Origin: Alphaproteobacteria bacterium
GTDB lineage: Bacteria; Pseudomonadota; Alphaproteobacteria; Rs-D84; SZUA-605
Reading direction: 5' to 3'
NCBI GenBank assembly: GCA_031549385.1
Contig: JAVBPW010000002.1
Location: 1-64,000 of the forward strand
DNA: 64,000 nt
A model generated the notes under the pieces. That model saw only the letters and a list, made by a program, of their open reading frames with translations, made no database searches and was not told the origin of the DNA. Positions 2,526 to 42,819 of this stretch are shown here, piece by piece; within the stretch, counting starts at the first letter, position 1; each line of letters opens with the position of its first letter. The translations under genes were made by a program, and so were the position numbers.

Positions 2526-2645
2526 TGGTAGTTGAATTTTGGCTGTAAAAGTATTTAAAATTATGTCACCATATCACGTAGCTTTTGTACGCTCAGGGTT
2601 CCATAATTTCAAATACTTCTGTCCTCGCTCAAAATTGAACAACCA
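2526..2645. repeat. Dispersed palindromic hairpin element, copy 1
   Basis: Core TCACGTA-GCTTTTG-TACGCTCA (2574-2595); arms AAGTATTT/AAATACTT, AAATTATG/CATAATTT, AATTTTG-GC/GC-T-CAAAATT. Confidence 0.9.
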
Positions 2646-2655
2646 TATAAAATAC

Positions 2656-2684
2656 TTGACAAATGTTAATTTTTGTGCTATATA
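2656..2684 (+). promoter_or_regulatory. sigma70 promoter
   Basis: TTGACA-17-TATATA with TG extended -10. Confidence 0.75.
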
Positions 2685-2730
2685 TAAGTTGTTAATATAA
2701 ACCTAAAAAACAAACATAATATTAAAAAAA

Positions 2731-3108
2731 ATGAAAGATTTGCAAATTTTAAACAATGGAAGGCTTTATGACTTCTTTGATGTAGAAAAAACCTTTTCAA
2801 AGAAAGAAATCAAGTCAGTCATAAGGCATCTTAGTTCTATATCTGATAAAGAAGTACAAGAGATGATTATAGAAGATTCCTTATGGGGTTTTCTTTGGAC
2901 TGTTAATGAAACGGTAAAAGAAAAGAGAAATTCGTTGAATAAAGAAATCCTTCAAGGATTATGGAAAAATAGAAAAACGTTTTACATTTTTCTTCAATTT
3001 ATGAAAAGAGGATATTTTGAACACTTTATTTATGTTGAATTTTTACATTTCTATAACCGGAAGTATCGTCCTGTAAGGCGGTTCGTTAGAAACTTGTGTT
3101 TCAATTAA
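2731..3108 (+). CDS. Orphan hypothetical protein (125 aa)
   Basis: ORF between promoter and terminator; SD-less A-rich leader. Confidence 0.7.
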   Translation: MKDLQILNNGRLYDFFDVEKTFSKKEIKSVIRHLSSISDKEVQEMIIEDSLWGFLWTVNETVKEKRNSLNKEILQGLWKNRKTFYIFLQFMKRGYFEHFIYVEFLHFYNRKYRPVRRFVRNLCFN

Positions 3109-3112
3109 TATT

Positions 3113-3136
3113 AAGGAGCTTTGTGCTCCTTTTTTT
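3113..3136 (+). terminator. Intrinsic terminator
   Basis: AAGGAGC-TTTGT-GCTCCTT plus T-run. Confidence 0.85.
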
Positions 3137-3206
3137 ATTTTCATTTTTCTTGAAAAGGGGGATTAAATCATTAACATTATTACAAATATAAAAAAGGAAG
3201 AGAATA

Positions 3207-4139
3207 ATGGAAAAATTAGTTATTATTGGATCAGGTTGCGCTGGATTGACTGCTGCTATTTATGCTACACGTGCTTTGCTTAATCCTCTTGTTATTATTG
3301 GTAATCATGATGGTGGAGCTTTGACTGATACTATGGAAGTTGAAAATTTTCCTGGATTTCCTGAACCAGTTAGTGGGGCAGAAATTTTAGGTAATATGAA
3401 AAAACAAGCTAAAAATTTAGGTGCTAGATTCCAATCTGGAATGGTTGAAAAAATTGAAAAGCTTGATGATAAAGCAGGGTTCATTATTCATATAAAAGGG
3501 AAAGATTCTATTCAAGCTTATTCTGTGATTATTGCAACTGGGGCGACTGCTCGTTGGTTGGGATGTAAGGGCGAAGATAAGTTTAGAGGACATGGGGTTT
3601 CTGTGTGTGCTACATGTGATGGATTCTTTTATAAAGAAAAAAAAGTAGCCGTTGTTGGTGGTGGAAATACTGCTTTGTGTGATGCTAAATATTTATCAAA
3701 ACTTGCTGAAAAAGTTTATATTGTTTATCGTCGTGGAGAATTTAGAACTAATTTTAAAATGGTTGAAGAATTAAAGAAAACTCCTAATGTTGAATTGGTT
3801 CTTGAATCAGTTGTTGAAGAAGTTAAGGGGGACGATTTAGTTAAATCTATTATTGTTAAAAATCTTAAAAGTGATGATACAAAAGAATTAGAAGTTGATG
3901 GTGTTTTTGTTGCTATTGGTTGTGATCCTAATACTAAATTTGTTGATGGTTTAATCAATTTGGATGATGCTGGTTTTATTGAATTAAAATCTGGAACAAC
4001 TGAAACTTCTATGGAAGGAATTTTTGCTTGTGGTGATTGTGCTAATCCAAAGCATCAACAAGCTGTGATTGCTGCTGGGCATGGTGCAGAGGCTGCTATT
4101 GCTTGTGAACATTTTATAATGGAAAGGTGGCCAAATTAA
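3207..4139 (+). CDS. trxB: Thioredoxin-disulfide reductase
   Basis: IIGSGCAGLTAAIY, VENFPGF, CATCDG active site, VVGGGNTA, GIFACGD. Confidence 0.96.
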   Translation: MEKLVIIGSGCAGLTAAIYATRALLNPLVIIGNHDGGALTDTMEVENFPGFPEPVSGAEILGNMKKQAKNLGARFQSGMVEKIEKLDDKAGFIIHIKGKDSIQAYSVIIATGATARWLGCKGEDKFRGHGVSVCATCDGFFYKEKKVAVVGGGNTALCDAKYLSKLAEKVYIVYRRGEFRTNFKMVEELKKTPNVELVLESVVEEVKGDDLVKSIIVKNLKSDDTKELEVDGVFVAIGCDPNTKFVDGLINLDDAGFIELKSGTTETSMEGIFACGDCANPKHQQAVIAAGHGAEAAIACEHFIMERWPN

Positions 4140-5506: not shown

Positions 5507-5514
5507 ACTTTTTG

Positions 5515-5980: not shown

Positions 5981-6115
5981 ATGAGTAATCTTAGTAATGA
6001 TGAGAAGCCAAGGCGCTTAAGTGCAAAGGAAGTTCGTGAAATGAACAGAAGAAATTCTGGAAAAAGGAATGTCCAAAACCGGGGTAAAAGCTCCGGAAAA
6101 AAGGAACAAAGTTAG
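5981..6115 (+). CDS. Small basic orphan protein (44 aa; below the ORF-track cutoff)
   Basis: MSNLSNDEKPRRLSAKEVREMNRRNSGKRNVQNRGKSSGKKEQS*; AAACCTA leader and own terminator. Confidence 0.55.
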   Translation: MSNLSNDEKPRRLSAKEVREMNRRNSGKRNVQNRGKSSGKKEQS

Positions 6116-6134
6116 TTATAGTTTATTAATCTTT

Positions 6135-6159
6135 AGCCACTCGAAAGGGTGGTTTTTTT
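6135..6159 (+). terminator. Intrinsic terminator
   Basis: AGCCACTC-GAAA-GGGTGGTT plus T-run. Confidence 0.85.
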
Positions 6160-6177
6160 CTAATTTTCAATACTGGC

Positions 6178-6207
6178 TTGACTTTTGGTGTTTTTGCACT
6201 ATATAAT
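6178..6207 (+). promoter_or_regulatory. sigma70 promoter
   Basis: TTGACT-16-TATATA or -18-TATAAT. Confidence 0.65.
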
Positions 6208-6251
6208 CTTCGAACTTATTAAAAATCAAACCTATAAATAAACTTAAATTT

Positions 6252-6500
6252 ATGTATCAATATTGTTTCGAAGCGCTTAAAAATGCGAATGATTGGAGGT
6301 CTATCTTAGACTTTTTTGAATTCTTAAGTCCTCGACAGAGGATAGAGTTTTATCAAAATGCTCCTGTGGAGTATGTTGAGTTGGGAATTCTTCTTGATGG
6401 AGGTTATACTCCATCTGATCATGATCGTTTTTTAAGAGAAAGGCTTGATGAAGAAGAAATAAGTGAATTATTTTTTAATTCAGAAGCGCTTGTTATGTGA
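6252..6500 (+). CDS. Orphan acidic hypothetical protein (82 aa)
   Basis: ORF with promoter, AAACCTA/AAACTTA leader and terminator. Confidence 0.65.
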   Translation: MYQYCFEALKNANDWRSILDFFEFLSPRQRIEFYQNAPVEYVELGILLDGGYTPSDHDRFLRERLDEEEISELFFNSEALVM

Positions 6501-6504
6501 CTAC

Positions 6505-6541
6505 AAAAAATATTGCTCCTTTTATGGAGCAATAATTTTTT
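6505..6541. terminator. Bidirectional terminator
   Basis: TATTGCTCC-TTTTAT-GGAGCAATA flanked by A and T runs between convergent genes. Confidence 0.8.
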
Positions 6542-6562
6542 ACCTGATATTTAGGGGAAATT

Positions 6563-7216
6563 TTATTTAATTTTTGAATTTATATATTTTAATGCTTCTT
6601 CTATTGTTTGTTTTTCTGTTAGCTTGGTATTATCTAATAAAAATGCATCTTTTGCCATTTTTAATGGTGAAATTTTTCTTGTTTGATCGTTGTTATCACG
6701 AATTGCTAATTCTTCTGTAACTTGTTTTAAATTAACTTTTTTACCTTTTAATTTTAATTCGTCATATCTTCTTTTTCCTCTTGTTTCAAGAGAGGCTGTT
6801 AGAAATATTTTAATAGGTGCTTTTGGAAAAGCTTCTGTTTGAATATTACGACCACTTATTATAAAACCATCATATTCATCTTTTAATTCTTTTACTAAAT
6901 TATGTAAAAGTTTTATTAATCCATAAGAAATTTCTTTTACACCACCTATACAACTTGTTAATGTTGATACTTCACTGGATTTTAAATCTTTATCTTTTAA
7001 TGCTTTTTGAATGTCTTCATATTTCATTTTCTTGATTAATTTTAATGCAGCTTTTTCATCATTTGTTCCTTGTCTTATTAAGTACAAAGATAATGAACGA
7101 AGAGCTACACCAGTATCAAGGTGAAGAAATTTTAGCTTTTTTGCAAGAGCTATACATAAAGAAGTTTTACCAGATGCTGATGTACCATCAAGTGCAACTA
7201 TTATAGGCCTTTTCAT
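6563..7216 (-). CDS. cmk: Cytidylate kinase
   Basis: IIVALDGTSASGKT P-loop, HLDTG, KIFLTASLETRGKRR, RDNND..R..SPL; start placed at MKRPII. Confidence 0.9.
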   Translation of the reverse strand: MKRPIIVALDGTSASGKTSLCIALAKKLKFLHLDTGVALRSLSLYLIRQGTNDEKAALKLIKKMKYEDIQKALKDKDLKSSEVSTLTSCIGGVKEISYGLIKLLHNLVKELKDEYDGFIISGRNIQTEAFPKAPIKIFLTASLETRGKRRYDELKLKGKKVNLKQVTEELAIRDNNDQTRKISPLKMAKDAFLLDNTKLTEKQTIEEALKYINSKIK

Positions 7217-7217
7217 T

Positions 7218-8459
7218 TTATGCCTTCTTTTTTGTGTTTGCATAAATTGTTAGTGGAGCACTGTGATGTTCAACAGTTTCTTTATTTACTATCAATTCTT
7301 CTACATTCTTATTGTCTGGAATATTAAACATAGGTTCAAGTAATAATTGTTCCATGATTGAACGCAATCCTCTTGCTCCTGTCTTTCTTTTTAATGCTTC
7401 GTCTGCTATTGCAACAAGAGCATCTTCTGTGAATTTTAGCTTTACATTTTCCATTGCAAATAATGCTTCATATTGCTTTGTTAAAGCATTCTTTGGTTTT
7501 GTTAGAATTTGTATTAATGCATCACGATCTAAATCATCTAATGTTGCTATCAGTGGCATACGTCCAATTAATTCTGGAATAAGACCAAATTTTACTAGGT
7601 CTTGAACTTCTACTTTTTTGAATAGTTCTGATAATTGATGTGAACTTTTTGATTTAACTTCTGCACCAAATCCCATTGAAGTTTGGTTTGTTCTTTTTTC
7701 TATAATTTTATCCAAGCCATCAAAAGCTCCACCACATACAAACAATATGTTTGATGTATCAATTTGAACTAGTTCTTGTTGTGGGTGTTTTCTTCCACCT
7801 TGTGGTGTTATTGATGCAATTGTACCTTCCATTAATTTTAATAATGCTTGTTGTACGCCTTCACCAGATACATCACGTGTTAATGATGGATTGTCTGATT
7901 TTCTTGTAATCTTATCAATTTCGTCAATATAGATTATTCCTTGTTGGGCTTTTTCTACATCATAATCTGCAGCTTGTAATAGTTTAGAAATTATTGTTTC
8001 TACGTCGTCTCCTACATATCCTGCTTCAGTTAATGTTGTTGCGTCTGCAATTGCAAATGGAACATCCAATACTCTTGCAAGAGTTTGTGCAAGTAATGTT
8101 TTTCCTGAACCTGTTGAACCAATCAATAAGATATTTGATTTTTGAATTTCTACTTCATTTTCTTCAAGTTTGCTTAAATGTCTTTTATAGTGATTATAAA
8201 CAGCAACTGATAAAATCTTTTTTGCAGATGTTTGGCCAATAACAAATTCATCCAATGCTTTATATAATTGTGATGGTGTTGGAATATCTTTATATTGTTT
8301 TAGATTTTGTTTTTTATTATTGTCTTTAATAATATCTACGCACAATGTAATACATTCATCACAGATAAATGTAGATGGACCAGCAATGAGCTTTTTAACC
8401 TCATGTTGTGATTTTCCACAAAATGAACAGTACTTAGTTAATTTTTTTGTATCTTCCAT
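7218..8459 (-). CDS. clpX: ATP-dependent Clp protease ATP-binding subunit ClpX
   Basis: CSFCGK zinc finger, [38 protein letters not shown]. Confidence 0.98.
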
Positions 8460-8469
8460 ATCATTCCTT

Positions 8470-8596
8470 TAAACTTTATTCTATGGACTGCGATTCAAAA
8501 GGATTAAAAATTGTGACACGCATCACGTAGCTATATGTATGCTCAGGTGTCCCAGATTTTAAATACTTTTGTTCTCGTCTCATATAATTAAGTTTA
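8470..8596. repeat. Dispersed palindromic hairpin element, copy 2 (between clpP and clpX)
   Basis: Core TCACGTA-GCTATATG-TATGCTCA; arms GACAC/GTGTC, CAAAAG/CTTTTG, TATG-GAC/GTC-T-CATA. Confidence 0.9.
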
Positions 8597-8614
8597 CCTT
8601 TATTTATATCTGTG

Positions 8615-9226
8615 TTATCCGTTTTGGTTTGCGTTTCTTGTTGTGAAAACTTTATCTATAAGGCCAAAAGATTTTGCTTCTTCTGCTGACATAAAGTTAT
8701 CTCTTTCTGTTGCTTGTTCAACTGCCTTTATTGTTTGGCCTGTGTGTTTTGAAAGCAATGTATTTAATTTTTGTTTTGTTTTAATTATTTCTTTTGCATG
8801 GATTTCAATGTCAGTTGCTTGACCTTGAGCTCCGCCTAATGGTTGGTGTATCATTATTCTTGCATTTGGGAGAGCTATTCTTTTGCCCTTTGTTCCACCT
8901 GATAGTAGGAAAGCACCCATTGATGAGGCTGATCCTATACAGATTGTTGATACATCACATCTTATATATTGCATAGTATCGTAAATTGCAAGCCCTGCGT
9001 CTACTTCTCCACCTGGAGAGTTGATGTAGATAGAAATGTCTTTATCTGCATTTTCTGATTCTAAAAATAGGAGCTGTGCACAAACTAGTGAGGCTGTTAC
9101 TGAATTTATTGGACCTGTTAAAAATATTATTCTTTCTTTTAAAAGCCTTGAAAACACGTCATATGCGCGTTCTCCGCGACCTGTACTTTCAACAACCATT
9201 GGGACTAAATCGGCGTGTATGTTCAT
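8615..9226 (-). CDS. clpP: ATP-dependent Clp protease proteolytic subunit
   Basis: [37 protein letters not shown]. Confidence 0.98.
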
Positions 9227-9337
9227 AAATAACTCCATTTAATTATTAGATGTTGTTTATTCTAGCAATTTTTTTTGAAATTTTCATCAAAAATTTTGTG
9301 TCTTTTTCAAAATTTTGGACTTGATTTTTAAAATAGC

Positions 9338-10024
9338 CTAAATTTTAGGGAATTTTTCTTCTCTGACCCCAGCTTTTTCAAGGTCTTTGAGTTGATAAGG
9401 ACCATATGAGAATCGTGTTAATTCTTTAACTTGATGACCTAAGTATTCGAAAATGCGACGTATTTCTCTGTTTTTTCCTTCTGTAAGATATACATTTAAG
9501 GAAGAAAATTTGTCGTTTTGGTCTAAAATTTCTGCTTTTAATCCTTTGTAGTTAAAACCATCTATCGTTATTCCCTTTTCAAGGGAGGTTAGTGTTGGTT
9601 TTGTTATTTTACCTTCTATTTTTATCTTATAACCTCTGATTTGGTTTCCTCTTTCAAGCTTTTCTTTCAATTTTGCATCGTTTGTAAGCAAAAGTAGGCC
9701 TTTTGAGTTGAAATCGAGTCGTCCTATATAATGGAAGTTAGCTAATTCTTTAGGTAGGATATCAAATATTGTAGGTCTGCCTTTTTCATCACTGTGCGAT
9801 GTTATGTAGTTTGCTGGTTTATGGAAAGCTATTAGGCGTTTTTCTATCTTTAGGTTTATTGTTTTACCGTTTATTTCAATTTTGTCTCCCGTTGTGGCTT
9901 GTTGGCCTAATACAGCTGGTTTGCTATTTACTTTAACCTTACCATCGCGAATCAGTTGTTCAGCGGCTCTTCTTGAATATAAATTACTTGATGCTATTAA
10001 TTTTGTTAGGTATTCTAACTTCAT
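9338..10024 (-). CDS. rRNA pseudouridine synthase (RsuA/RluB family)
   Basis: S4 domain (SRRAAEQLI), GRLD catalytic motif, EGKNREIRR. Confidence 0.92.
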   Translation of the reverse strand: MKLEYLTKLIASSNLYSRRAAEQLIRDGKVKVNSKPAVLGQQATTGDKIEINGKTINLKIEKRLIAFHKPANYITSHSDEKGRPTIFDILPKELANFHYIGRLDFNSKGLLLLTNDAKLKEKLERGNQIRGYKIKIEGKITKPTLTSLEKGITIDGFNYKGLKAEILDQNDKFSSLNVYLTEGKNREIRRIFEYLGHQVKELTRFSYGPYQLKDLEKAGVREEKFPKI

Positions 10025-10548
10025 TCTTTGCCAACTATTACAGATGCTTCACGAAGGACTTCGCTGCCCATCATATAGCCAGCTTCTGCTTCTGTAATGA
10101 CTATATTATTTTTTCCTTTTTGAAACATAATTGCATTGTGATACATTGGGTTAAATTCTTGACCCTGGGCTTCTATTTTTCTTATGTTATGCTTTTTTAA
10201 TATTTCTAAAAAAGAGTTATAAATTGATTTAAATCCAGTTATTGTTGATTGTAGTTCTTCTGATTGTTTTAAATTTTCAAGAGCACGGAAGGCATAATCA
10301 TAACTATCCAGTATAGATATAATATCTTTTGCAAAGCTTTTTGTTTTTGATGCAGATTGTTTTTCAATTTCAATTTGTGATCTGTGTTTTATGTTTTGAA
10401 TTTCTGCTAATGCACGTAAAGCTTGATCTTTCCAATCAATTTCGTCTGCTTTTTTATTTTGGTTTTCAGCAATAGGTTCACATGTGCATTCGTCAATATG
10501 ACATTCACAATTAGCTTCTTCGAAATTCTTTATATTTTCTTCTTTCAT
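10021..10548 (-). CDS. grpE: Nucleotide exchange factor GrpE
   Basis: LRALAEIQN, EFNPMYHNA, GYMMGSEVLREASVIV. Confidence 0.93.
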   Translation of the reverse strand: MKEENIKNFEEANCECHIDECTCEPIAENQNKKADEIDWKDQALRALAEIQNIKHRSQIEIEKQSASKTKSFAKDIISILDSYDYAFRALENLKQSEELQSTITGFKSIYNSFLEILKKHNIRKIEAQGQEFNPMYHNAIMFQKGKNNIVITEAEAGYMMGSEVLREASVIVGKE

Positions 10549-10663
10549 AATAGTTTTTCCTGTTGATTTATTCTAACATAATGTAGTAAAAAAGCCAGAC
10601 TTTTCAAGAATTATTTTTAAATAGCTCTTCCCAAATAAATTTGGCTTTGTTATAATCAAAAAT

Positions 10664-12481
10664 ATGGATGATAGATTAAAAGTAGTTTTGCATGAAGACG
10701 GTATAAAAAGGTACAGTTGTGGACCTTTACGTAAAGGACTTAAAAAACGCAAAAAGTTCTTTAATTTTAAATTCTATAAAAAATCTTTTTTAATTCTTTT
10801 TTGGCTTAGCATACTTGTTGGTTTTTATATTGTTGTTTTGTTTTTACAAATGCCTTCATTTAATTCTATGTTAGCAGTTGAGAGAAAGCCTTCTATTGTT
10901 GTACTTGATGAAAGTGGAAAGAAAATTGCTGGTATTAATGATAACTATGGGTTGATTACTGAATCTTCTGATTTGCCACCTCATGTTTGGCAGGCTATTG
11001 TTGCTATTGAAGATAAGCGTTTCTTTAAGCACAGGGGAATTGATTATCGAGGACTTACTCGAGCAACTTTTGTTAATCTTTTTACGGGTAAGCCTATGCA
11101 GGGGGGAAGTACTATTACTCAGCAGGTAGCTAAAAATATATTCTTGTCTTCTAAACGTAACTTTAATAGAAAAATTATTGAGCTCATTTTATCAGGAATG
11201 TTGGAGAGAAAGTTTACTAAAGAACAAATATTAAATCTTTATATGAACAGAGTTTCACTTGCTTCTGGTAAATATGGATTGGATGCTGCTGCACATGAAA
11301 TATTTAATAAATCTTTAAAAAATTTAGAAATTTGGGAAGCTGCTTCTTTAGCCGGTATGCTTAAGGCGCCTACTACTTATAGTCCTTTTAGAAATCCTGA
11401 ATTTAATATTGGAAGAACTAGAGTTGTTTTGAGGGAAATGGAGCAACAAGGTTATATTACTAAAGCAGAATATGATAGGGAAGTTAAAAGAATAAAGTTT
11501 GATAAAAAGAAACAAGTAGGTCATGCTTCAAGATATTTTGCTGATATGGTTGTTACAGAAGTAAAATCTTTAATAGGAGATATTAATGAGGATATTGTAG
11601 TTAGAACTACATTAGATACTAAGATGCAACAATATGCTCAAGATATGCTTAATCAAGTATTAGATGGCTCTGAATTAGAAGGTGCTGTGGTTATATTTGA
11701 TTATGATGGAAAAGTTAAAACTGTTGTTGGGGGAAGAGATTATCAAAAAAGCCAATTTAATAGAGCTTATCAAGCTAAACGTCAATCTGGTTCTGCTTTT
11801 AAGCCTTTTGTATACCTCGCTGGGTTTGAAAATGGTATGAAACTTACTGATCCTGTTTATGATGAAGCTATTGAAATTGATGGTTGGAGCCCAAAAAACT
11901 ACAACAAGAGATATTTAGGTAAGGTTAGTTTAACCTATGCTTTTGCTCAAAGTATTAATACTATACCTCTTAAGATTACTCAACAGGTTGGGTTGAGGTC
12001 TGTTGTTAGAACTGCTAAGAAAATGGGAGTGGTTGCAGATTATAGATATGATATGAGTTTGGTTCTTGGATCTAATGAAATTAGCCTTTTTGATTTGACT
12101 GTTGGATATATTCCATTTGCAAATGGTGGGTATGGTATGACACCTACATTAATTACTGAAATAAGAGGGGATGAGGGAATTAAATGGAGCAAAAATAGTA
12201 TTGCTAAAACCCGTTTGATTGAAAAAGGTAATTATGAAGATATGAGAACTTTACTTCGTGAAGTTATAGTTAATGGGTCAGGTAAGAGAGCTTATTACCC
12301 TGGGCTTTTGGGTGGTAAAACAGGAACTTCATCTGAAAATAAAGATGCTTGGTTTATAGGTTTTGATGATGAATATGTTGCAGGGGTGTGGGTTGGAAAT
12401 GATGATAGTGCACCTATGTCGGATGATGTGCTGGGGGGGACGTTGCCGGCGATTGTGTTTAGAATGATATTGAAAAAATAA
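10664..12481 (+). CDS. Class A penicillin-binding protein (PBP1A family)
   Basis: N-terminal TM; EDKRF..H.GID and GGSTITQQ transglycosylase motifs; SAFK, SIN, KTG transpeptidase motifs. Confidence 0.93.
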   Translation: MDDRLKVVLHEDGIKRYSCGPLRKGLKKRKKFFNFKFYKKSFLILFWLSILVGFYIVVLFLQMPSFNSMLAVERKPSIVVLDESGKKIAGINDNYGLITESSDLPPHVWQAIVAIEDKRFFKHRGIDYRGLTRATFVNLFTGKPMQGGSTITQQVAKNIFLSSKRNFNRKIIELILSGMLERKFTKEQILNLYMNRVSLASGKYGLDAAAHEIFNKSLKNLEIWEAASLAGMLKAPTTYSPFRNPEFNIGRTRVVLREMEQQGYITKAEYDREVKRIKFDKKKQVGHASRYFADMVVTEVKSLIGDINEDIVVRTTLDTKMQQYAQDMLNQVLDGSELEGAVVIFDYDGKVKTVVGGRDYQKSQFNRAYQAKRQSGSAFKPFVYLAGFENGMKLTDPVYDEAIEIDGWSPKNYNKRYLGKVSLTYAFAQSINTIPLKITQQVGLRSVVRTAKKMGVVADYRYDMSLVLGSNEISLFDLTVGYIPFANGGYGMTPTLITEIRGDEGIKWSKNSIAKTRLIEKGNYEDMRTLLREVIVNGSGKRAYYPGLLGGKTGTSSENKDAWFIGFDDEYVAGVWVGNDDSAPMSDDVLGGTLPAIVFRMILKK

Positions 12482-12590
12482 TTCTGTTGACTGCGATTCA
12501 AAAGGATTAAAAATTTCAAGACACATCACGTATGTTTAATACGCTCAGGTTTTAAAATTTTCAATACTTCCGTTTTCGCTAAATTATATG
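12479..12590. repeat. Dispersed palindromic hairpin element, copy 3 (outer arms mismatched, possibly chimeric)
   Basis: Core TCACGTA-TGTTTAA-TACGCTCA; left arm shares 27 identical nt with copy 2 and 24 of 25 nt with copy 7. Confidence 0.9.
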
Positions 12591-12634
12591 AAGTTTATGG
12601 ATAGTCTTTGTAAAACTATGATTATTCTTTTTTG

Positions 12635-12663
12635 TTGACATATTTCAAAGTTACACCTATATT
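12635..12663 (+). promoter_or_regulatory. sigma70 promoter driving an ORF-less region
   Basis: TTGACA-17-TATATT. Confidence 0.75.
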
Positions 12664-12669
12664 ATGCTT

Positions 12670-12999
12670 GGTTTAGTTAAAAATTTAAATATAAGATTAT
12701 AGAAAAAAAACTTTAAAATATACCTGAAAGGGTAAGATATCTGCCTCTGCTTCTCAGATAGGGTCATTTGGTAGAACAAGGAACCTTGAGTTCCCTACGA
12801 GGGCCATATGGCTAAGAAAAGGGGGGACTTATACGGGATTTGGCTCCTCCCTTTTTAAAAATATTTAAAAAGACGATAGCGCTGGATTTGGATCAGACCG
12901 GTTTTTAAGTTTACGGTAGCATTCGATATATAAGACACCTGAAATAATTCTTATACAACATCTATCGAGATTTTTAACCCCCTTTAGTGGGGGTTTTTT
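12670..12999 (+). ncRNA. Candidate structured ncRNA (~330 nt), family not recognised
   Basis: Bounded by a consensus promoter and terminator; no substantial ORF; locally GC-rich with at least 5 hairpins. Confidence 0.5.
12976..12999. terminator. Intrinsic terminator
   Basis: AACCCCC-TTTAGT-GGGGGTT plus T-run; abuts the convergent methyltransferase stop. Confidence 0.85.
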
Positions 13000-14257
13000 A
13001 TTTTGCAAATAATGATATTACTTCCAAATGGTTTGTATATGGAAACTGGTCAACTGGTGTTATTTTTTCTAATATATATCCACTGTCACACAATATTTTG
13101 GCATCTCTTGCAAATGTTGATGGGTCGCATGAGATATAAATAATTAATGGAACTTTTGTTTTTGATAATTCTTCCACTTGGGATAATGCTCCTGCACGTG
13201 GTGGGTCGAGGATTACTATATCAAATTTTTCTAAGTCTTTTTGTTTTACAGGATCATCAAATAAATTTTGTTCTATTGCTTTGATTTTTCCTTTTCCATA
13301 TTCTTTTAATTTTTCTACAGATGGGGAGAATATGTCATAGCCTGTTACTTCGCCTAGCTTAGATAGAGGAATTGTAAATGTTCCAAGACCACAAAATAAA
13401 TCCGCCACCACCAACCTGACGTTGGACGCTTTATTGTTTTTTATGTATTCAAGTACGATTTTTTTTAATAAGTTTTCACCTTGAAGACTTGGTTGTAAGA
13501 ATGCTGATGGTGGAAATGGAATTATTGCGTCTTCAAATTTTACTACTGGAGTTTTTGAGGTGTAAATTATTTCTTTTCCTGCTCTTGTTATTTGAATTAC
13601 ATTATTTGCTTTTCCGAATTCTGAAAATTTTTCTGTTAGGTCTAAATCTATTGTTGGTACTCTGTGTGGTGACCATGTGAAGTCTAATCCATTTTCAACT
13701 TCAGTTATATTTACGAATCCTGTTTCACCTTTTTTTGTAATGCTTTTTAGTAAGTTATAAGTTGGTTTTATTATGTTATTTAATGCGTCAGTTAAAAGAG
13801 GGCAGTGTGGAATGTTTATTGTGTAGTGAGTTGCTGCTTCTTTGAAACCCAATACAAAATTATCACCAAAGTTTTTATATGATAAAGATACTCTTCGTCT
13901 TGAATTTTGTCCTACCTTTTTTAAAGGTATTATAGTTTTAGATTCTATATTTTTATGCTTTAAAGAATTATTTAAAACTTGGTTTTTATATTCATCATAA
14001 TAATCTGTTGATAAATGTTGTGCACAGCATCCACCGCATTTTGTATAAAATGGGCAAATTGGTTCTGCTCTTTTAGGAGATTTATTTATTATATTTTTTA
14101 ATATATATTTTGTTTCTCTTTTTTCTTTTACTATTTCTATTTCAACTTCTTCATTTGGAAGTGTAAAAGGAATATAGACTTTTTTGTCATTGTAAATTGC
14201 AATGCCATCACAAGAATCGCCTAAATCAGTTATTTTAAGTTTTATTATTTCATTCAT
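12998..14257 (-). CDS. rlmD: 23S rRNA m5U methyltransferase (RlmD/TrmA family)
   Basis: TRAM domain, CPFYTKCGGC..QH Fe-S motif, AFLQ, DLFCGLG, DPPRAG, YISCDP.TFARD, DQFPYT.HLE. Confidence 0.88.
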   Translation of the reverse strand: MNEIIKLKITDLGDSCDGIAIYNDKKVYIPFTLPNEEVEIEIVKEKRETKYILKNIINKSPKRAEPICPFYTKCGGCCAQHLSTDYYDEYKNQVLNNSLKHKNIESKTIIPLKKVGQNSRRRVSLSYKNFGDNFVLGFKEAATHYTINIPHCPLLTDALNNIIKPTYNLLKSITKKGETGFVNITEVENGLDFTWSPHRVPTIDLDLTEKFSEFGKANNVIQITRAGKEIIYTSKTPVVKFEDAIIPFPPSAFLQPSLQGENLLKKIVLEYIKNNKASNVRLVVADLFCGLGTFTIPLSKLGEVTGYDIFSPSVEKLKEYGKGKIKAIEQNLFDDPVKQKDLEKFDIVILDPPRAGALSQVEELSKTKVPLIIYISCDPSTFARDAKILCDSGYILEKITPVDQFPYTNHLEVISLFAK

Positions 14258-14296
14258 GAGTGCTTATTATAAGCTTGAAAATGGTATTTTCAACTA

Positions 14297-14833
14297 TTAA
14301 GCTACTTTCTTTACTAATTCATTATCTATTTTGTTTGAATAAGAATCTGTGAAATTATCTGGAAGTTCTTTTTCTTTTTCGTTTTCATTTTGAGCGGCAA
14401 AGGTTTGAATGAATAAAAAATCAGATAGTCTGTTAAAGTATTTTAATACAAATGTTAAATCCATGTAGTCTTGTCTGTCTAATGATACTATTGTTCTTTC
14501 TATACGTCTGCAAATTGCACGAGCCATAGAAACAAAGCCTTTTGGATTTATGAATTTATTTGGAATTGATGAGTTGTGTGACATTATATAATTTTCAAGT
14601 TCATTTGTTTTTTGGAGAAGTTTTTCATTGTTCGATGATTTCAAATATAAATATCCCATGACTTCTGATAAATATGTTTGAATGTCATCAAATTTGTCAC
14701 CTGATAGGCCTAGGATACAACTTAATTCGTCAACTTCACCAAGCAAGTGGATAATAGGATCCGCTTTTGAAACAACTTCATTTAATAATTTTGTTTGCCC
14801 TTTGTCACCGAATTTTGTTGTTATTAAAGCCAT
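14297..14833 (-). CDS. ATP:cob(I)alamin adenosyltransferase (PduO type)
   Basis: TKFGDKGQT, GEVDELS..LG, ARAICRRIER, YFNRLSDFLF. Confidence 0.88.
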   Translation of the reverse strand: MALITTKFGDKGQTKLLNEVVSKADPIIHLLGEVDELSCILGLSGDKFDDIQTYLSEVMGYLYLKSSNNEKLLQKTNELENYIMSHNSSIPNKFINPKGFVSMARAICRRIERTIVSLDRQDYMDLTFVLKYFNRLSDFLFIQTFAAQNENEKEKELPDNFTDSYSNKIDNELVKKVA

Positions 14834-14888
14834 CTTTTACCTCCTCCCTTTTAAAATTTAGCTTGTTCTTTTATTCCTTATTTTTTTC

Positions 14889-16790: not shown

Positions 16791-16883
16791 TTTCGCCTCG
16801 TTTTCCCTTAAAATACATACTTTGAGCGTCATTTGTCAATTTTGTCTAAAATAGCACCTACAGTATGTCGATTTTTCTCCTAA

Positions 16884-16899
16884 CCACAATATATAGTAT
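16884..16899. promoter_or_regulatory. NrdR box upstream of nrdJ
   Basis: CCACAATATATAGTAT matches the consensus acaCwAtATaTwGtgt, ~95 bp upstream of an RNR gene. Confidence 0.7.
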
Positions 16900-17058
16900 G
16901 TGAAAAAATAATGCTATTAAAAAAAAATCAAAAATTTGAATATTTACGCTTGACTTTTAAAAAACCCAAAAAACACTGTCTTTTTTAAAAAAATAGTGTA
17001 TTATTGTTTTTTAAAGAGAGATAATTTTAAGAGAAAATTTTTTAAAAAAGGAGCTAAT

Positions 17059-17868
17059 ATGAAGCATATAAAATTAATACTGGTACTATTACTTTTATTT
17101 GTTATAGGTGTTATTACATGGGGAAATATTATAATCGGAAGTAAAGGTCAAATCTTTGAAAATACACTAAATTTAGCAGGTGGAACCGAGTCAAATTCGA
17201 GTCTTTTTTTACTTTTTATACTACCTTGTTTCTTGTTATTGTTTTTGGTAGTTTTTTTAGGTTTTGTTATTATAAGAGTGGGGTCTATTAAAACTGAGGA
17301 ACATTTCTTGAAAAATCAAAATTCTATGCTTGCGAATATGGAAACGTTGTCTAAAACTATGTTGGAACAAAGGCAATTAGCCTATACATCTGCTTTTTTT
17401 GCTCAATTACCAATTATTTATCAAAGTTTGTACGACTCTGTAATTAAAATTGTGAGCTATTCTTTTTTCTTTCCAGAAAGGTTTAAACATGAGAATTCAG
17501 ACCTTTTTTCTTTTTGTAGAGTGTTTTTAGCAGAAGTAGCTAAGAATCCAGAAATGGTTATCAAAATCAGACAGACATTCAAAAAGAATGAAAAAATACA
17601 ATTAGAAATGGCTACTACTCAAATTAAATATGAAAGATTCCTTAAGGCTTTGAAAATCTATGACAGAGATCAATTTGTGTACCAATATATAAATGATGGA
17701 GTCGTAGGTGAAGTTATGGATATTCTTATTTCTTCATATGAAGATGTGAAAACACAATATGTAGCTGAAATGCAAGAAAAAGAGAAAGAAAAACAGACTG
17801 AAAAGTTTGAAGAAGCTAAATCAGAAGAGGAAACCTCATCTTTACTTGCTTCTATTAGTTTTGAGTAG
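17059..17868 (+). CDS. Hypothetical membrane protein (2 TM plus helical domain)
   Basis: AAGGAG RBS before ATG 17059; two hydrophobic segments. Confidence 0.75.
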   Translation: MKHIKLILVLLLLFVIGVITWGNIIIGSKGQIFENTLNLAGGTESNSSLFLLFILPCFLLLFLVVFLGFVIIRVGSIKTEEHFLKNQNSMLANMETLSKTMLEQRQLAYTSAFFAQLPIIYQSLYDSVIKIVSYSFFFPERFKHENSDLFSFCRVFLAEVAKNPEMVIKIRQTFKKNEKIQLEMATTQIKYERFLKALKIYDRDQFVYQYINDGVVGEVMDILISSYEDVKTQYVAEMQEKEKEKQTEKFEEAKSEEETSSLLASISFE

Positions 17869-17896
17869 CTTTGAGTCAACTTTTTTGTTTTAAGTC

Positions 17897-17924
17897 TTGA
17901 CAAAGTCAGTTTTGCCATTATATT
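17897..17924 (+). promoter_or_regulatory. sigma70 promoter
   Basis: TTGACA-16-TATATT. Confidence 0.65.
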
Positions 17925-17930
17925 GATAAA

Positions 17931-18045
17931 TGATTAATAATACAATATACCTGTTTCGCTGCGAAAGCGGCATTGAGACAGCCCCTACAAAAAAATCTTT
18001 TTTTGTAACTTTCCTATGGGTGGCCTCTTTTGGCTGCCCTTTTTT
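17931..18045 (+). ncRNA. Candidate three-hairpin small RNA (~115 nt)
   Basis: Promoter, CTGTTTC-GCTGC-GAAA-GCGGC-ATT-GAGACAG hairpin, second hairpin, terminator; no ORF. Confidence 0.5.
18018..18045 (+). terminator. Intrinsic terminator
   Basis: GGGTGGCC-TCTTTT-GGCTGCCC-TTTTTT. Confidence 0.85.
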
Positions 18046-18064
18046 ATTTATTTTTGGTGAATAT

Positions 18065-18092
18065 TTGACAAATTATAAAAATATGCTATATT
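18065..18092 (+). promoter_or_regulatory. sigma70 promoter
   Basis: TTGACA-16-TATATT with TG extended -10. Confidence 0.7.
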
Positions 18093-18098
18093 TAATAT

Positions 18099-18285: not shown

Positions 18286-18294
18286 AGAATATTT

Positions 18295-18810: not shown

Positions 18811-18871
18811 TTTTTCCTTTCATTTGTTATATTTTTCGTTATATTTTCTAATATAGTAGAGGATATTGAAA

Positions 18872-19864: not shown

Positions 19865-19920
19865 TTATTGATAAACGAATCTAAACTGTTTATTATTAAT
19901 TTAAAATATTGGAGAGAATA

Positions 19921-20706: not shown

Positions 20707-21477
20707 ATGAACGTTCAGAAAAATAAAATAGAAATTAAAAATGTTTATAAATCTTTTGGATCTAAACATGTTTTAAAAGATTTTAACCTTGATATAAAAA
20801 AAGGCGAATCAGTTGTTATTATTGGACCTTCTGGTATTGGTAAATCTGTTTTATTAAAATGTATATTAGGCCTTTTGGAATGTGATAGTGGAATTATTAA
20901 ACTTGATGGTCAAAAAATTAATGGGGTTAAAGAAAAAGAACGTGATCAAATAAATAAAAAAATTGGAATGCTTTTCCAAAATGCTGCTTTGTTTGATAGT
21001 TTGAATATTTGGGAAAATGTTTCTTTCAGAGATATTATGGAAAAGAAGCAAAACAGATGGGAAGCTAAAAAATCTGCTTTGAAATATTTGGAATCTGTTA
21101 ATCTTTCTAAAAGTGTTGCTGATATGTATCCAGTTGACCTTAGTGGTGGTATGAAAAAACGTGTGGCACTTGCACGTGCAGTTGCTCAATATCCTGAAGT
21201 GATTTTATTTGATGAACCTACTACTGGACTTGATCCTATTACTTCTGATGTTATTAATGATCTTATTATAAAACTTTCAAAACAAATTGGGGCGACTACT
21301 ATTACTATTACTCATGATATTAAATCTGCTCTTAAAATTGCTGATACAATTGCTTTTCTTTATGATGGGCACATTATGTGGAAGGGAAGTGTGGAAGAGT
21401 TTAAGACAACTAATAATCCGTACATAAAACAAATGAAGACTGGGTCTTCAATAGGCCCAATCAAACCCCTAGTTTAA
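20707..21477 (+). CDS. mlaF: MlaF family ABC transporter ATPase
   Basis: GPSGIGKS, LFQNAALFDS, LSGGMKKRVALARA, DEPTTGLDP. Confidence 0.93.
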   Translation: MNVQKNKIEIKNVYKSFGSKHVLKDFNLDIKKGESVVIIGPSGIGKSVLLKCILGLLECDSGIIKLDGQKINGVKEKERDQINKKIGMLFQNAALFDSLNIWENVSFRDIMEKKQNRWEAKKSALKYLESVNLSKSVADMYPVDLSGGMKKRVALARAVAQYPEVILFDEPTTGLDPITSDVINDLIIKLSKQIGATTITITHDIKSALKIADTIAFLYDGHIMWKGSVEEFKTTNNPYIKQMKTGSSIGPIKPLV

Positions 21478-21607
21478 AAAAACTTCTGAAAATTTGATGC
21501 AAATAACAAGAGTTGAAAAGTTGGTTCACAATCACGTATGTTTAATACGCTCATGCGAACACAATTTTCAACTTTCTTATTTTCTCTAAATTTTGATAAG
21601 TTTTTTT
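21476..21607. repeat. Dispersed palindromic hairpin element, copy 4 (between convergent mlaF and addB)
   Basis: Core TCACGTA-TGTTTAA-TACGCTCA; arms GTTCACA/TGCGAAC, AGTTGAAAA/TTTTCAACT, AAAATTT-GA/TC-T-AAATTTT. Confidence 0.9.
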
Positions 21608-24429: not shown

Positions 24430-25200
24430 ATGAAAATTGCATCTTTCAATGTTAATTCTATTAGAGCTCATTTAATTAATGTTTTGCAATGGGTGGAAGA
24501 AACTTCACCAGATATTATTTTACTACAAGAATTAAAATGTGAAGAGTTCCAATTCCCATATTGGGACTTTGAAATGATGGGATATAATATTGCAGTTTTA
24601 GGACAAAAAAGTTGGAACGGAGTTGCGGTGCTTTCTAAATTTAAAATAGAAGACCGAATCGATCATATACCAGGGGGAGATAATTCATCTTCAAGATATT
24701 TAGAAGTGTTTACTGGTGGTGTTAGAGTGGCTTCTATTTATTTGCCTAATGGAAATCCTTTAGGAGGAGAAAAGTTCAAATATAAAATGGATTGGATGGA
24801 TGCTCTTCATAAACATATGGAAGTTCTTTCAAAATATGATGAGCCAATTTTATTGGGTGGGGATTTTAATGTTATTCCTAAAGATATGGATGTTTATGAT
24901 CCAGCTTCATTTAAAAATGATGCAGTTATGCAACCAGAAGTTAGAAAAGCATTTTTCGAATTTGAAAAAACTGGATTTAAATCTGCTAAAGAAATTTTAT
25001 ATCCTGAAAAAGTTATGTATTCTTATTGGGATTATTTCAGAGGATTGCGCCAAAAAAATAGAGGCATTTTATTAGATTTCTTTTTACTCAATAAGCAGGC
25101 GCAAGATAAGTTGGTTGATTTTGGAGTAGATGAGGAGCCAAGGGATAGACCTCAGTCTTCTGACCACACACCAATCTGGATTGAGTTAAAATCTATCTAA
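24430..25200 (+). CDS. xth: Exodeoxyribonuclease III
   Basis: MKIASFNVNS, LQELK, YLPNG, GDFN, YSYWDY, SDHTP. Confidence 0.96.
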   Translation: MKIASFNVNSIRAHLINVLQWVEETSPDIILLQELKCEEFQFPYWDFEMMGYNIAVLGQKSWNGVAVLSKFKIEDRIDHIPGGDNSSSRYLEVFTGGVRVASIYLPNGNPLGGEKFKYKMDWMDALHKHMEVLSKYDEPILLGGDFNVIPKDMDVYDPASFKNDAVMQPEVRKAFFEFEKTGFKSAKEILYPEKVMYSYWDYFRGLRQKNRGILLDFFLLNKQAQDKLVDFGVDEEPRDRPQSSDHTPIWIELKSI

Positions 25201-25311
25201 TCAGTTGCGATTCAAAAGGATTAAAAATTCGTTCACAATCACGTAGCGTTAGTACGCTCATGCGAACTCACTTTTAATACTTTTGTTCTCACTTGATTAT
25301 CTAAATTTTAA
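25186..25311. repeat. Dispersed palindromic hairpin element, copy 5 (between convergent xth and comEC; outer arm overlaps the xth stop)
   Basis: Core TCACGTA-GCGTTAG-TACGCTCA; arms GTTCACA/TGCGAAC, CAAAAG/CTTTTG, TAATCA-GT/AC-T-TGATTA. Confidence 0.9.
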
Positions 25312-39115: not shown

Positions 39116-39236
39116 GACGCGTTGAAAATGGGCTGTAAACAAAAAGAAATGAAAATTACCAAACAATCACGTATGTTTAATACGCTCATGCTTGGAAATT
39201 TTAATTTTTTTCGTTTTCGTTCCATTTTGAACGGTC
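39116..39236. repeat. Dispersed palindromic hairpin element, copy 6 (between tyrS and cysS)
   Basis: Core TCACGTA-TGTTTAA-TACGCTCA; arms CCAAACA/TGCTTGG, AAAATT/AATTTT, AAAATGG-GC/GT-T-CCATTTT. Confidence 0.9.
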
Positions 39237-40776: not shown

Positions 40777-40815
40777 TAGAGTATTCTTAGTAGAAATAAA
40801 CTTAAAAATAAAAAT

Positions 40816-41295
40816 ATGAGACCAGATGAAATTTTTAATAATCTGAAGCAGGGTAAGGCTTCTGTAGAAGATTTTTCCCAATATGTTAGAGAAAATCCTA
40901 TGAAAGTAACATTTACTGGGGTTATTAACTCTATAAGGGGTTGGTTTGATCACGTTTTACAAATGCAAATAATTAATGCCTTTATTGATATTCGGCCTAT
41001 ATCAGATGCTGGGTTTGAAGCGTTAATTACCGAGGCTTCTTTTCGAAAGGGTTTATACTTTTTGGAAATTGTTGTTGAGAAAACAAGGTTTTCAGAAAAA
41101 ACAGAGGCTGCGTTTGTGTATCAATGTTTGGTGAAGGAATGGGATGATTTGTTGAATGATTATTATAAAAAATATAATTTTCATAATGCTACATTTGACT
41201 TCATGCTGCAAATTGAAAAGTTTAAACAGACGCTAAACAATGCGGTGAAACAAGGAAGGCCACTCAAGTGGCTCCAAAAAATATTGTGTTCATGA
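40816..41295 (+). CDS. Orphan hypothetical protein (159 aa)
   Basis: Own promoter, AAACTTA SD-less leader, downstream terminator-like hairpin at 41327-41357. Confidence 0.7.
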   Translation: MRPDEIFNNLKQGKASVEDFSQYVRENPMKVTFTGVINSIRGWFDHVLQMQIINAFIDIRPISDAGFEALITEASFRKGLYFLEIVVEKTRFSEKTEAAFVYQCLVKEWDDLLNDYYKKYNFHNATFDFMLQIEKFKQTLNNAVKQGRPLKWLQKILCS

Positions 41296-41371
41296 GTTAA
41301 GTTTTATGTGTTAGTGAAGTGAGATTGGGGGCTAGTGATAGGCCTCCTTTCTTTTTTATTGAAAAGGTATT

Positions 41372-41395
41372 AAAAAAGAGGGCAATTGCCCTCTT
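41372..41395 (-). terminator. Intrinsic terminator of pal
   Basis: AAGAGGGC-AATT-GCCCTCTT with an A-run on the left. Confidence 0.8.
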
Positions 41396-41414
41396 AATTT
41401 TTTGAAGTTAAATC

Positions 41415-41864
41415 TTATTTAACTACAGATACTCCGCGACGGTTCTTTGACCATGCTTCTTCTGTGTTACCCAATACTTCTGGTCTTTCTTTTCCATAAG
41501 ATATTGTTGTAATACGAGATGAATCAACGCCTTTTGATGCTAAATATTCTTTAACAGCATTAGCACGTCTTGCACCTAAAGCTTGGTTGTATTCTCTTGT
41601 TCCTCTTTCGTCACAATGTCCTTCAACTTTCAAAGCTTTGTCTTTGAATGTTTCTAGCCATAATGCTTGCATATCAAGAGTTGATTGTGCGTCTGATCTG
41701 ATATCTGATCTGTCAAAATCAAAGTACACTTTGTTTCCTGCACGAGCTACGAAGTCTTGTGCTGTTCCTGGTGTTATTCCATCAATTGGATCTGGCAATT
41801 GGCTTGTAGATCCGCAAGCTGATAATAATAGAGCAGTCATTGCAATGCTTAGAACTTTTTTCAT
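41415..41864 (-). CDS. pal: Peptidoglycan-associated lipoprotein Pal
   Basis: Lipobox LSAC, VYFDFD, EGHCDERGTREYN.ALG.RRA, ISYGKERP, NRR. Confidence 0.96.
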   Translation of the reverse strand: MKKVLSIAMTALLLSACGSTSQLPDPIDGITPGTAQDFVARAGNKVYFDFDRSDIRSDAQSTLDMQALWLETFKDKALKVEGHCDERGTREYNQALGARRANAVKEYLASKGVDSSRITTISYGKERPEVLGNTEEAWSKNRRGVSVVK

Positions 41865-41947
41865 AATTTTCTCCTTTACTTAAGTTACTTTTAAAAGTAT
41901 GCTTGCATATTATATAAAAAATAATTGAAAATTGCAAGGGGTAATGT

Positions 41948-42688
41948 GTGGAAGATCCTATAATTTTGAAAAATTTGTTGGATTTTTTTATTCAAGCAGG
42001 TGTGGATGAAAACATCTCTGAAGAAAGCATTGACAATTATGAAATAAAGAAATCTAAAAATACTATTACTATTAATAAACAAGAGAATTCTGCGTTTGTT
42101 AAAAATGTTTCTGTTTCAGAAAAGACTGAAAAATTCCTTGAAAATGTTGATACATTAGATGGCTTGAAACAAGCGTTATTTGATTTTGATAATGAATTAA
42201 AAAATTATTGTATTAATACTATTTTTGGAAGGGGAGTTTATAATCCTATTGTTTTGGTTCTTGGGGAAATGCCTAATGCTGATACCGATAAAAGTGGAAA
42301 TGCTTTTTCTGGAAATAGTGGTGTTCTTCTTGAAAAAATGTTAGGTGCTATTGGTCTTTCTGATCAAAATAATGCCTTTTTAAGTTATGTCTTTCCTTAT
42401 AAAACACCAGGGAATAGAGTGCCTACTACTGATGAAATGTCTGTTATGATTCCGTTTGCAAAAAGATTGATTAAACTTTTAAATCCTAAGATTGTTATAA
42501 GTTTGGGAGTTGTGCCTCTTAATGCTTTGACCGATAACAATTATACTATTTCAAAAAATCATGGAGATGTGGTTGATTATAATGGTGTTAAATTTGTTGC
42601 TATCCATGAACCTGATGTGCTTTTGATGGATCTATCTAAGAAGGTGGTGGCGTGGGAAGATCTTCAAAATATCCAAAAATTATTTTAA
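41948..42688 (+). CDS. Uracil-DNA glycosylase family 4-like protein
   Basis: LGEMP...D..G..FSG.SG.LL.KML.AIGL, PGNRVPT..E, LNPKIVISLG. Confidence 0.8.
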   Translation: MEDPIILKNLLDFFIQAGVDENISEESIDNYEIKKSKNTITINKQENSAFVKNVSVSEKTEKFLENVDTLDGLKQALFDFDNELKNYCINTIFGRGVYNPIVLVLGEMPNADTDKSGNAFSGNSGVLLEKMLGAIGLSDQNNAFLSYVFPYKTPGNRVPTTDEMSVMIPFAKRLIKLLNPKIVISLGVVPLNALTDNNYTISKNHGDVVDYNGVKFVAIHEPDVLLMDLSKKVVAWEDLQNIQKLF

Positions 42689-42819
42689 AAACTAATTCTG
42701 TTGACTGTGATTCAAAAAGAGTCGAAAGTTCACTTCACAATCACGTATGTTTAATACGCTCATGCGAAGATGACTTTCAACTTTTTTGTTCTCGTCTAAC
42801 ATAATTAATTTTTTTAAAA
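42683..42819. repeat. Dispersed palindromic hairpin element, copy 7
   Basis: Core TCACGTA-TGTTTAA-TACGCTCA; arms CTTCACA/TGCGAAG, GAAAGT/ACTTTC, TGTT-GAC/GTC-T-AACA. Confidence 0.9.

Follow-up and report, generated by a model that had tools for sequence, protein, structure and literature searches.

Hairpin repeats with covarying stems behind the genes of an alphaproteobacterial genome, and the occurrence of their tip in other phyla

The window studied here, a stretch of 64,000 nucleotides from an Alphaproteobacteria bacterium (C4:1-64000 of assembly G000), carries seven copies of a long hairpin element lying between genes. The copies are part of a dispersed, non-coding repeat that is found 22 times in the genome and mostly begins at or close to the stop codon of a gene read in the same direction. 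With a probability of roughly 0.55, we explain the element as a non-autonomous palindromic repeat of the REP/ERIC/SPRITE-like kind, which stands behind genes in the place of a terminator, would function as a 3' stem-loop and would spread with no transposase of its own. As part of this explanation, the hairpins of the window would be an AT-rich local branch of a multi-phylum family defined by the tip ATCA-CGTA(T)-loop-(A)TACG-CTCA.

The assembly has 931,143 bp in 8 contigs at 30% G+C, with 97% completeness and 0.19% contamination. The sole sequencing run that matches the DNA of the window is labelled invertebrate gut metagenome. The seven elements were located exactly where an earlier note on this DNA had placed them, and the tip ATCA-CGTA-(7-8 nt)-TA(C/T)G-CTCA was found in 7/7 copies. 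All the inner and outer stem pairs that the note had quoted are present. Its proposal of a bulged T also holds: the pairs 24-117 and 25-116 are realised as GC/CG, AU, UA and GU, beside an unpaired T that is kept in six of the seven window copies, the exception being the copy at 12479.

A covariance model and a genome scan, which the earlier note had proposed, were carried out on the whole of G000. The model R1, built from the element copies, obtained 31 matches, i.e. 22 distinct plus-strand copies and 9 weaker minus-strand matches of the palindrome to itself. Using nhmmer, 22 matches were likewise found, all on the plus strand, and 12 copies match the exact core. The 22 copies are distributed over contigs C2, C4, C6 and C7, and two of them (C7:342381 and C7:387729) are shortened. 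In the 17 full copies, 80.8% of the cells in 42 pairs are paired, compared with 66.0% after shuffling, a level that 0 out of 500 shuffles reached. When the partner columns are slid by 1-3 positions the pairing falls to 35-49%, and in 27 of the pairs both sides have changed. The description as a dispersed hairpin-forming repeat with covarying stems and conserved irregularities is thus borne out. The note had also proposed that the structure is selected for its shape. Stem covariation supports this, but the evidence is weaker than had been assumed, as the stems of ordinary terminators at one orthologous site are equally different between species of one genus, and as the outermost stems in an Opitutales genome (see below) vary from copy to copy and seem to derive from the flanks. 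Since plain terminators have unrelated stems between species, full replacement of a stem with its pairing kept is ordinary at such divergence, and it is no special evidence for an enzyme that reads the shape.

Three features go beyond the earlier note: the placement at stop codons, the uniform strand orientation and the tip shared across phyla. In G000, a co-oriented gene lies immediately 5' of 19 out of 22 copies, and 18 of these 19 copies start between -9 and +13 nt from its stop codon. No copy (0/22) lies inside a gene, and any overlap is limited to the last codons. The upstream genes have no common function, as can be seen from the window copies:

2526..2645, plus strand: copy 1, core 2573-2595, the most diverged copy, R1 score 98.4 bits
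8470..8596, plus strand: copy 2, core 8522-8545, between clpP and clpX
12479..12590, plus strand: copy 3, core 12525-12547, begins at the stop codon of a PBP1A-family gene (10664-12481)
21476..21607, plus strand: copy 4, core 21531-21553, begins at the stop codon of a gene for an ABC ATPase (20707-21477)
25186..25311, plus strand: copy 5, core 25238-25260, behind xth (24430-25200)
39116..39236, plus strand: copy 6, core 39166-39188, in the 144-nt tyrS-cysS spacer
42683..42819, plus strand: copy 7, core 42740-42762, behind a family-4 uracil-DNA glycosylase gene (41948-42688)

Copy 3, which lacks the bulged T, has a poor and degraded outer stem, and its fold is not that of one hairpin. Copy 4 is convergent with addB, and the left outer arm of copy 5 extends over the stop codon of xth and the last codons before it. 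Copy 6 starts 7 nt past the tyrS stop codon and ends 21 nt before the start of cysS, with no T-run; since it fills most of the spacer, it is co-transcribed if tyrS and cysS share a message. Copy 7 starts 3 nt past the glycosylase stop codon and is followed by a T-run. For annotation, the element is a marker of gene ends and a point at which assemblies break: the contigs of the sequencing run, possibly the source of the DNA, stop inside copy 4 (21476-21607). Besides copy 2, the exceptions to the placement are a weak plus-strand match at C6:21807, flanked by two minus-strand genes, and the copy at C7:392651, which has a divergent gene on its 5' side.

The position behind trxB was compared between species. 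Using the trxB protein of one sister-genus species, 30 orthologous loci were collected, and 230 nt past each stop codon were read. An element stands at the stop codon or within a few nucleotides of it in 11 out of 30 species, a canonical terminator (A-tract, GC stem, short loop, T-tract) in 15, and neither in 4. At 9 of the 11 occupied sites the stop codon is within the end of the element (AATTATAA or ATCTAA). Tandem copies are found in four of the 11 occupied species, and at the occupied sites the downstream T-rich stretch and the convergent gene end are still recognisable. Element and terminator share one slot behind trxB, and the series is a natural gain-and-loss set for a repeat replacing a terminator. 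One copy of the series, L341, carries arms from two different variants, from which we conclude that arms are exchanged between copies.

In the relatives of the same order, R1 obtained one or two weak matches in 4 out of 40 genomes, all with the tip kept. The pattern TCACGTA-N5-8-TACGCTC occurs in 10 out of 301 genomes of the order (G000 included), while the reversed-pattern control gave 0 everywhere. At six loci of these relatives the element is again found directly behind a co-oriented gene, and in one species three 101-bp copies stand in tandem behind trxB. The tyrS orthologues of three relatives are without the element; their synteny differs, and hence none is a precise empty site. About 100 nt past the tyrS stop codon of one relative (L153, G010:C85) there is a near-perfect long palindrome with the arms TGTCATCCTGAACTTGTTTCAG..., which differs from the present element and is probably another hairpin repeat family of the order. 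A metagenome scan with a neighbouring reductase, aimed at empty sites in close strains, gave nothing above 53% identity, and the 80 loci so obtained (1.09 Mb) contained one weak R1 match (E 0.054).

Outside the order, the exact pattern ATCACGTAT-N3-6-ATACGCTCA was scanned in one genome per species and matched at least 115 stretches. According to the record titles, these include Gammaproteobacteria (Kangiella, Marinicella, Thalassotalea, Pseudohongiella and metagenome-assembled genomes, MAGs), MAGs of Alphaproteobacteria, Helicobacteraceae, Desulfovibrionales and Haliangium together with Campylobacter, an Opitutales and a Puniceicoccaceae MAG, and Eubacteriales, Christensenellaceae, Peptococcaceae and Lactobacillales MAGs with Fusibacter and Bacillus fonticola. 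Among the matches listed, 61 out of 76 evaluable ones have the tip capping a long hairpin, defined by at least 20 pairs spanning the tip. In viral contigs, used as a negative control, 5 out of 33 tip matches cap such a hairpin and by eye one is family-like. A phage origin was rejected, as the viral contigs gave mostly chance matches.

In 75 sequences the 7-bp stem adjoining the tip is 82.8% paired, compared with 63.8% after shuffling, and all Watson-Crick pair types occur at each position. As the tip itself was used for the search, its conservation is partly due to ascertainment. For a subset of the copies there is independent evidence of unity in the arms: the motif GYGTTR is found in the 5' arm of 20 out of 61 copies and GCC[TG]NG in the 3' arm of 30 out of 61, with 0 and 2 occurrences in the swapped-side controls. 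These motifs align with TGCRAWWC and GTTYTCG of G000.

A second covariance model, R2, was built from an alignment of these 75 sequences, 21 from the same order and 54 from elsewhere. It gives at least 111 matches in the Opitutales MAG (1.1 Mb), 19 in an Eubacteriales MAG, 11 in Fusibacter, 11 in a Gammaproteobacteria MAG and 2 in Kangiella. It matched 0 out of 150 other alphaproteobacterial genomes (one per family, E <= 1e-5, stricter filters), and the distribution is therefore patchy. Plasmids gave no relevant match, and one gammaproteobacterial member of the family, searched for in 5,426 E. coli genomes, matched none of them. In the Rfam comparison that the note had proposed, the window gave 0 matches at the gathering threshold, and the elements themselves gave none at E <= 1 (4 loci of G000) or at E <= 0.1 (20 cross-phylum loci). 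A description of the tip was not found in the open-access literature, including that on RPE-1 and on palindromic repeats behind tRNA genes. Near-identical copies are found at L215, L189, L169 and L225, in MAGs titled Desulfovibrionales, Thermodesulfobacteriota and Bacteroidota, for which a binning error or a recent transfer is possible.

Across the phyla the flanking genes are unrelated housekeeping genes. At 44 cross-phylum loci the genes ending just before an element include frr, eno, rplL, nusG, lolA and rplS, and other elements lie in ybaB-recR and ffh-rpsP spacers. Genes for rRNA are followed as well: a pair of elements stands behind 5S rRNA, and a single one separates 23S from 5S rRNA. 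On three contigs of the Opitutales MAG, the gene on the 5' side is co-oriented for 23 out of 29 evaluable nhmmer hits, mostly at a short distance, and several copies are directly behind tRNA genes. Their orientation alternates with the gene blocks along the contig and does not follow the GC skew.

The Opitutales copies have common ends, TTTTGAGCG... and ...CATCTCAAA, outside of which the pairing is specific to the copy. This extra outer pairing has a median of 16 nt and a range of 3-31 in 42 out of 45 copies, by a crude ungapped count. It is partly of a subfamily type, with single differences matched on the other arm, and partly unique. In several of the unique cases a T-run follows the gene end at the left and an A-run stands at the right, the wrong polarity for a terminator, and one palindrome extends into the 3' end of a tRNA. 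The unique outer stems look like inverted copies of the 5' flank, which may have been made by fold-back or template-switch synthesis. Alternatively, they could come from insertion into existing palindromes or from later growth of a palindrome, which we do not favour over copying of the flank. Insertion into the loops of pre-existing terminators was also considered as a source and is disfavoured, because the T-runs are on the wrong side and one palindrome reaches a tRNA 3' end. Nested copies also occur in the Opitutales genome (G302:C1:29689-29777, G302:C1:108 and G302:C2:32650-32738), with one subfamily inside the left arm of another.

The earlier note had supposed that a partner enzyme is encoded outside the window, and this is not supported by the genome. 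Y1_Tnp (PF01797, RAYT) has 0 matches in G000 at E <= 1, and the TnpB zinc ribbon (PF07282), rve and the reverse transcriptase RVT_1 have no match in the whole 97%-complete assembly. No integron integrase was found in G000, which has four tyrosine recombinases only, namely XerC, XerD and two of a generic type; three of these four score 43.6-143.5 bits against TIGR02249, with a cut-off of 265, and the fourth has no match. There is a single sub-threshold DDE_Tnp_1 match in G000, on the 2.8-kb contig C8, which was rejected as a parent insertion sequence as it is unrelated to the element. Among five multi-copy genomes, Y1_Tnp was not found in three (G302, G303 and G304), one of them with at least 111 copies, and G301 and G305 have one weak match each, whose adjacency to elements was not checked. 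Finally, the 107 open reading frames (ORFs) flanking the 44 cross-phylum loci include one Transposase_31 (YhgA-like) match (L225) and no recurrent transposase.

In the explanation that we prefer, transcription would turn the element into the 3' end of the upstream message or into a hairpin between cistrons. The RNA hairpin may then serve as a 3' stem-loop, i.e. as a transcript end, a barrier to 3' exonucleases or an attenuator, as for REP, ERIC, Correia and SPRITE. At the DNA level the element would spread and turn over with no transposase of its own. It would do so probably through host replication or repair, by template switching or gene conversion between hairpins, or alternatively through a factor reading the tip once it is extruded. 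Turnover is suggested by the tandem arrays, the shortened copies, the exchanged arms and the expansion to at least 111 copies in one genome. Since the two conserved halves of the tip are separated by a loop of variable length, about 3 to 8 nt, the tip would be recognised as an extruded hairpin rather than as a duplex site of fixed spacing.

A bolder form of this idea, which we hold to be rather unlikely, is that the apical module of 22-24 nt marks a cross-phylum mobile hairpin without its own transposase. Such a hairpin would colonise the place of the terminator behind genes for proteins, tRNAs and rRNAs, and would grow by templated inverted copying of its flank, through fold-back or template-switch synthesis on a nascent strand. 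It would need nothing but host replication or repair and one conserved reader of the extruded tip. If the cross-phylum unity holds, many "lineage-specific" hairpin repeats that hug stop codons would be one old family with a single recognisable tip, and a conserved tip without a conserved enzyme raises the question of what reads it.

Several observations weigh against a role of the element as a 3' stem-loop of the upstream message. Copy 2 is antisense to the clpP-clpX operon, as both genes are on the minus strand. Copy 1 starts 38 nt from its upstream co-oriented gene, beyond an intact canonical terminator (2498-2517 and its T-run), and is followed by a promoter-like TTGACA..TATATA at about 2657-2685. 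Only 3 out of 22 hairpins have a T-run behind them, counted as 6 or more T in 8 nt, so that most copies are not canonical intrinsic terminators with a GC-rich stem directly followed by a U-tract.

The folding of the two strands, compared with RNA energies, points in the same direction. The gene-sense strand folds less well than its reverse complement in 15 out of 16 copies of G000, 38 out of 45 Opitutales copies and 61 out of 68 cross-phylum copies, by 4-7 kcal/mol on average. The mismatches on the sense strand are pyrimidine-pyrimidine 246 times and purine-purine 33 times in the Opitutales genome, 454 and 80 times in the cross-phylum copies, and 63 and 41 times in G000. On the reverse strand these positions become G.A-type pairs, and the 4x4 loop ATCA/CTCA becomes UGAG/UGAU, with two G.A pairs in tandem between U.U and G.U. 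Tandem G.A pairs are generally known to be stable, and their presence on the reverse strand speaks most strongly against a role at the mRNA level alone and is hard to square with the placement behind genes. The wobble pairs G.U and A.C were tried as a strand test and are uninformative, the counts being about equal.

Nor is the strand polarity in G000 explained at the RNA level; it points rather to a connection with replication. The plus strand of the contigs, which is the G-rich one, carries all 22 copies. In the regions that bear copies, the skew at third codon positions shows the plus strand to be G- and T-rich, and it is therefore leading-strand sequence and lagging-strand template. Of the ORFs in these regions 53% are on the plus strand and 47% on the other, so the chance that 19 out of 19 copies follow plus-strand genes is about 6e-6, for regions chosen after seeing the data. 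The third-position GC skew (GC3) is strong (about +0.4 / -0.3) only in C2, C4, C6 and C7:240-455 kb, whereas C1, C3, C5 and C7:0-240 kb have almost none; the hairpins occur solely in the strong-skew part, 56% of the genome, which has a probability of about 3e-6 with the region again chosen after seeing the data. The corresponding AT3 skew is uniform along C7, indicating the same replication direction throughout. Among relatives, the local GC skew on the element strand is positive at 13 out of 15 loci. In the complete Fusibacter genome 9 out of 11 copies are on the leading strand, assuming that the record starts at the origin, a count that a simple gene-strand bias would fit too. The replication polarity is a feature of the G000 lineage, and the general rule is sense orientation directly behind a gene, because the orientation of the Opitutales copies follows the genes and not the GC skew.

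The polarity would be accounted for if the element were moved as single-stranded DNA by an HUH/Y1 enzyme, as in REP/RAYT or an IS200/IS605-type miniature, with the tip and its flanking tetranucleotides read on the lagging-strand template. The same strand of all 22 copies is that template in G000, the relatives' loci show the corresponding positive skew, and the copies have preserved a hairpin with its fixed flanks of 4 nt and its bulged base. It is nevertheless improbable: G000 has neither Y1_Tnp nor TnpB, three multi-copy genomes lack Y1_Tnp as well, the Opitutales copies are oriented with the upstream gene and not with the GC skew, and in G000 the lagging-strand template holds the strand that folds more poorly. 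Recombination sites of an integron-type system, like attC, would also be imperfect palindromes with an extrahelical base in a single orientation. We give this explanation almost no credence, as the best tyrosine recombinases are XerC and XerD instead of an integron integrase, the elements are 4-14 kb apart among housekeeping genes without any cassette structure, conservation is found at the tip and not at the base, and the R''/R' boxes were not seen by reading.

The better fold of the reverse strand, by contrast, is what would be expected if the elements were multi-copy small-RNA genes read from that strand, convergent with their neighbour, with purine-rich loops and tandem G.A pairs in the RNA. 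The 61 out of 68 cross-phylum copies that fold better in this direction, and the mostly G.A or A.G character of the non-Watson-Crick positions there, agree with this proposal. Many copies, however, stand too close to the next gene for a promoter to fit in, with 5-21 nt between them at C7:438131, C7:373059 and window 39120. Other copies lie within operons, e.g. ybaB-recR and ffh-rpsP, promoter-like sites near the window copies occur at chance frequency, and Rfam has no match, which together make small-RNA genes an improbable answer, marginally more so than a Y1-moved element. A replication-linked single-strand signal, either a priming or restart hairpin like the single-strand origins of plasmids or a polar fork signal, would fit the strict polarity, the confinement to the strong-GC3 part of the genome and the long, imperfect, orientation-specific hairpins. 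It is very improbable, given that the polarity is missing in the Opitutales genome, plasmids have no match, the placement is tied to gene ends and the occurrence is patchy, with 10 out of 301 genomes of the order and 0 out of 150 other genomes of the class.

Two further regions of the window were noted. At 12635-13030, a promoter-like TTGACA-17 nt-TATATT (12635-12663) is followed about 300 nt on by a terminator (12979-12993), with no plus-strand ORF of at least 25 aa and no Rfam match. An RNA-run contig matches 12684-13030 exactly at a depth of 19.6, and the region may encode a small RNA that is not yet catalogued, or else a tiny gene. In two RNA runs of the same study, no contig lies over the four elements in 6001-26000, which has no bearing on their expression. 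The second region, 52847-58531, is a 1894-aa ORF without an NCBIfam match.

Among the known systems, REP, BIME and REPIN sequences are similar in being dispersed extragenic palindromes near or over stop codons that can be transcribed with the upstream gene. According to PMC3733652, REPs (GTAG- and CGTC-tagged) are 20-40 bp long, with stems of 8-9 bp and the tag at one end, and the CGTC REPs have no dedicated transposase and occur in several phyla. The present elements differ from REPs in their length of 110-135 bp and their conserved apical module; they are not short GTAG/CGTC-tagged palindromes, and with no RAYT in G000 they are not RAYT-flanked. Nor are they PATEs derived from IS200/IS605, as PF01797 and PF07282 are missing from G000 and each element is a single hairpin rather than two subterminal ones. 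A MITE with terminal inverted repeats does not fit either, as the termini are the most variable part, there is no rve, and the lone DDE_Tnp_1 match is on the unrelated C8, though direct duplications were not searched systematically. An integrase with an array of single-gene cassettes, as expected around attC sites, is not found in G000.

ERIC (or IRU) sequences are imperfect palindromes of about 127 bp from Enterobacteria that lie in transcribed spacers and 3' regions and occur in both orientations. They resemble the present element in size, in forming a single long imperfect hairpin and in their location, but the copies described here are co-oriented with the upstream gene, and no sequence relation was found, the E. 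coli genomes being without a match. The RPEs of Rickettsia share an AT-rich, small-genome alphaproteobacterial host and are palindromes of about 100-150 bp reaching into coding sequence. They have been reported to insert in frame within genes, whereas the present copies overlap last codons at most. The putative RPE-1 core string given in the earlier note equals the reverse complement of the tip described here. Known terminator-like repeats also take the place and shape of transcription-end hairpins and insert into one another, but they belong to another lineage and have other sequences, while the present copies are mostly without a U-tract and have a tip common to several phyla. The element is best filed with the REP, ERIC, Correia, SPRITE and RPE-type palindromic repeats, being a member of none of them by the features compared. 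It is set apart from them by the lack of any dedicated enzyme found, by its strict placement at gene ends, where it alternates with terminators, and by its cross-phylum tip.

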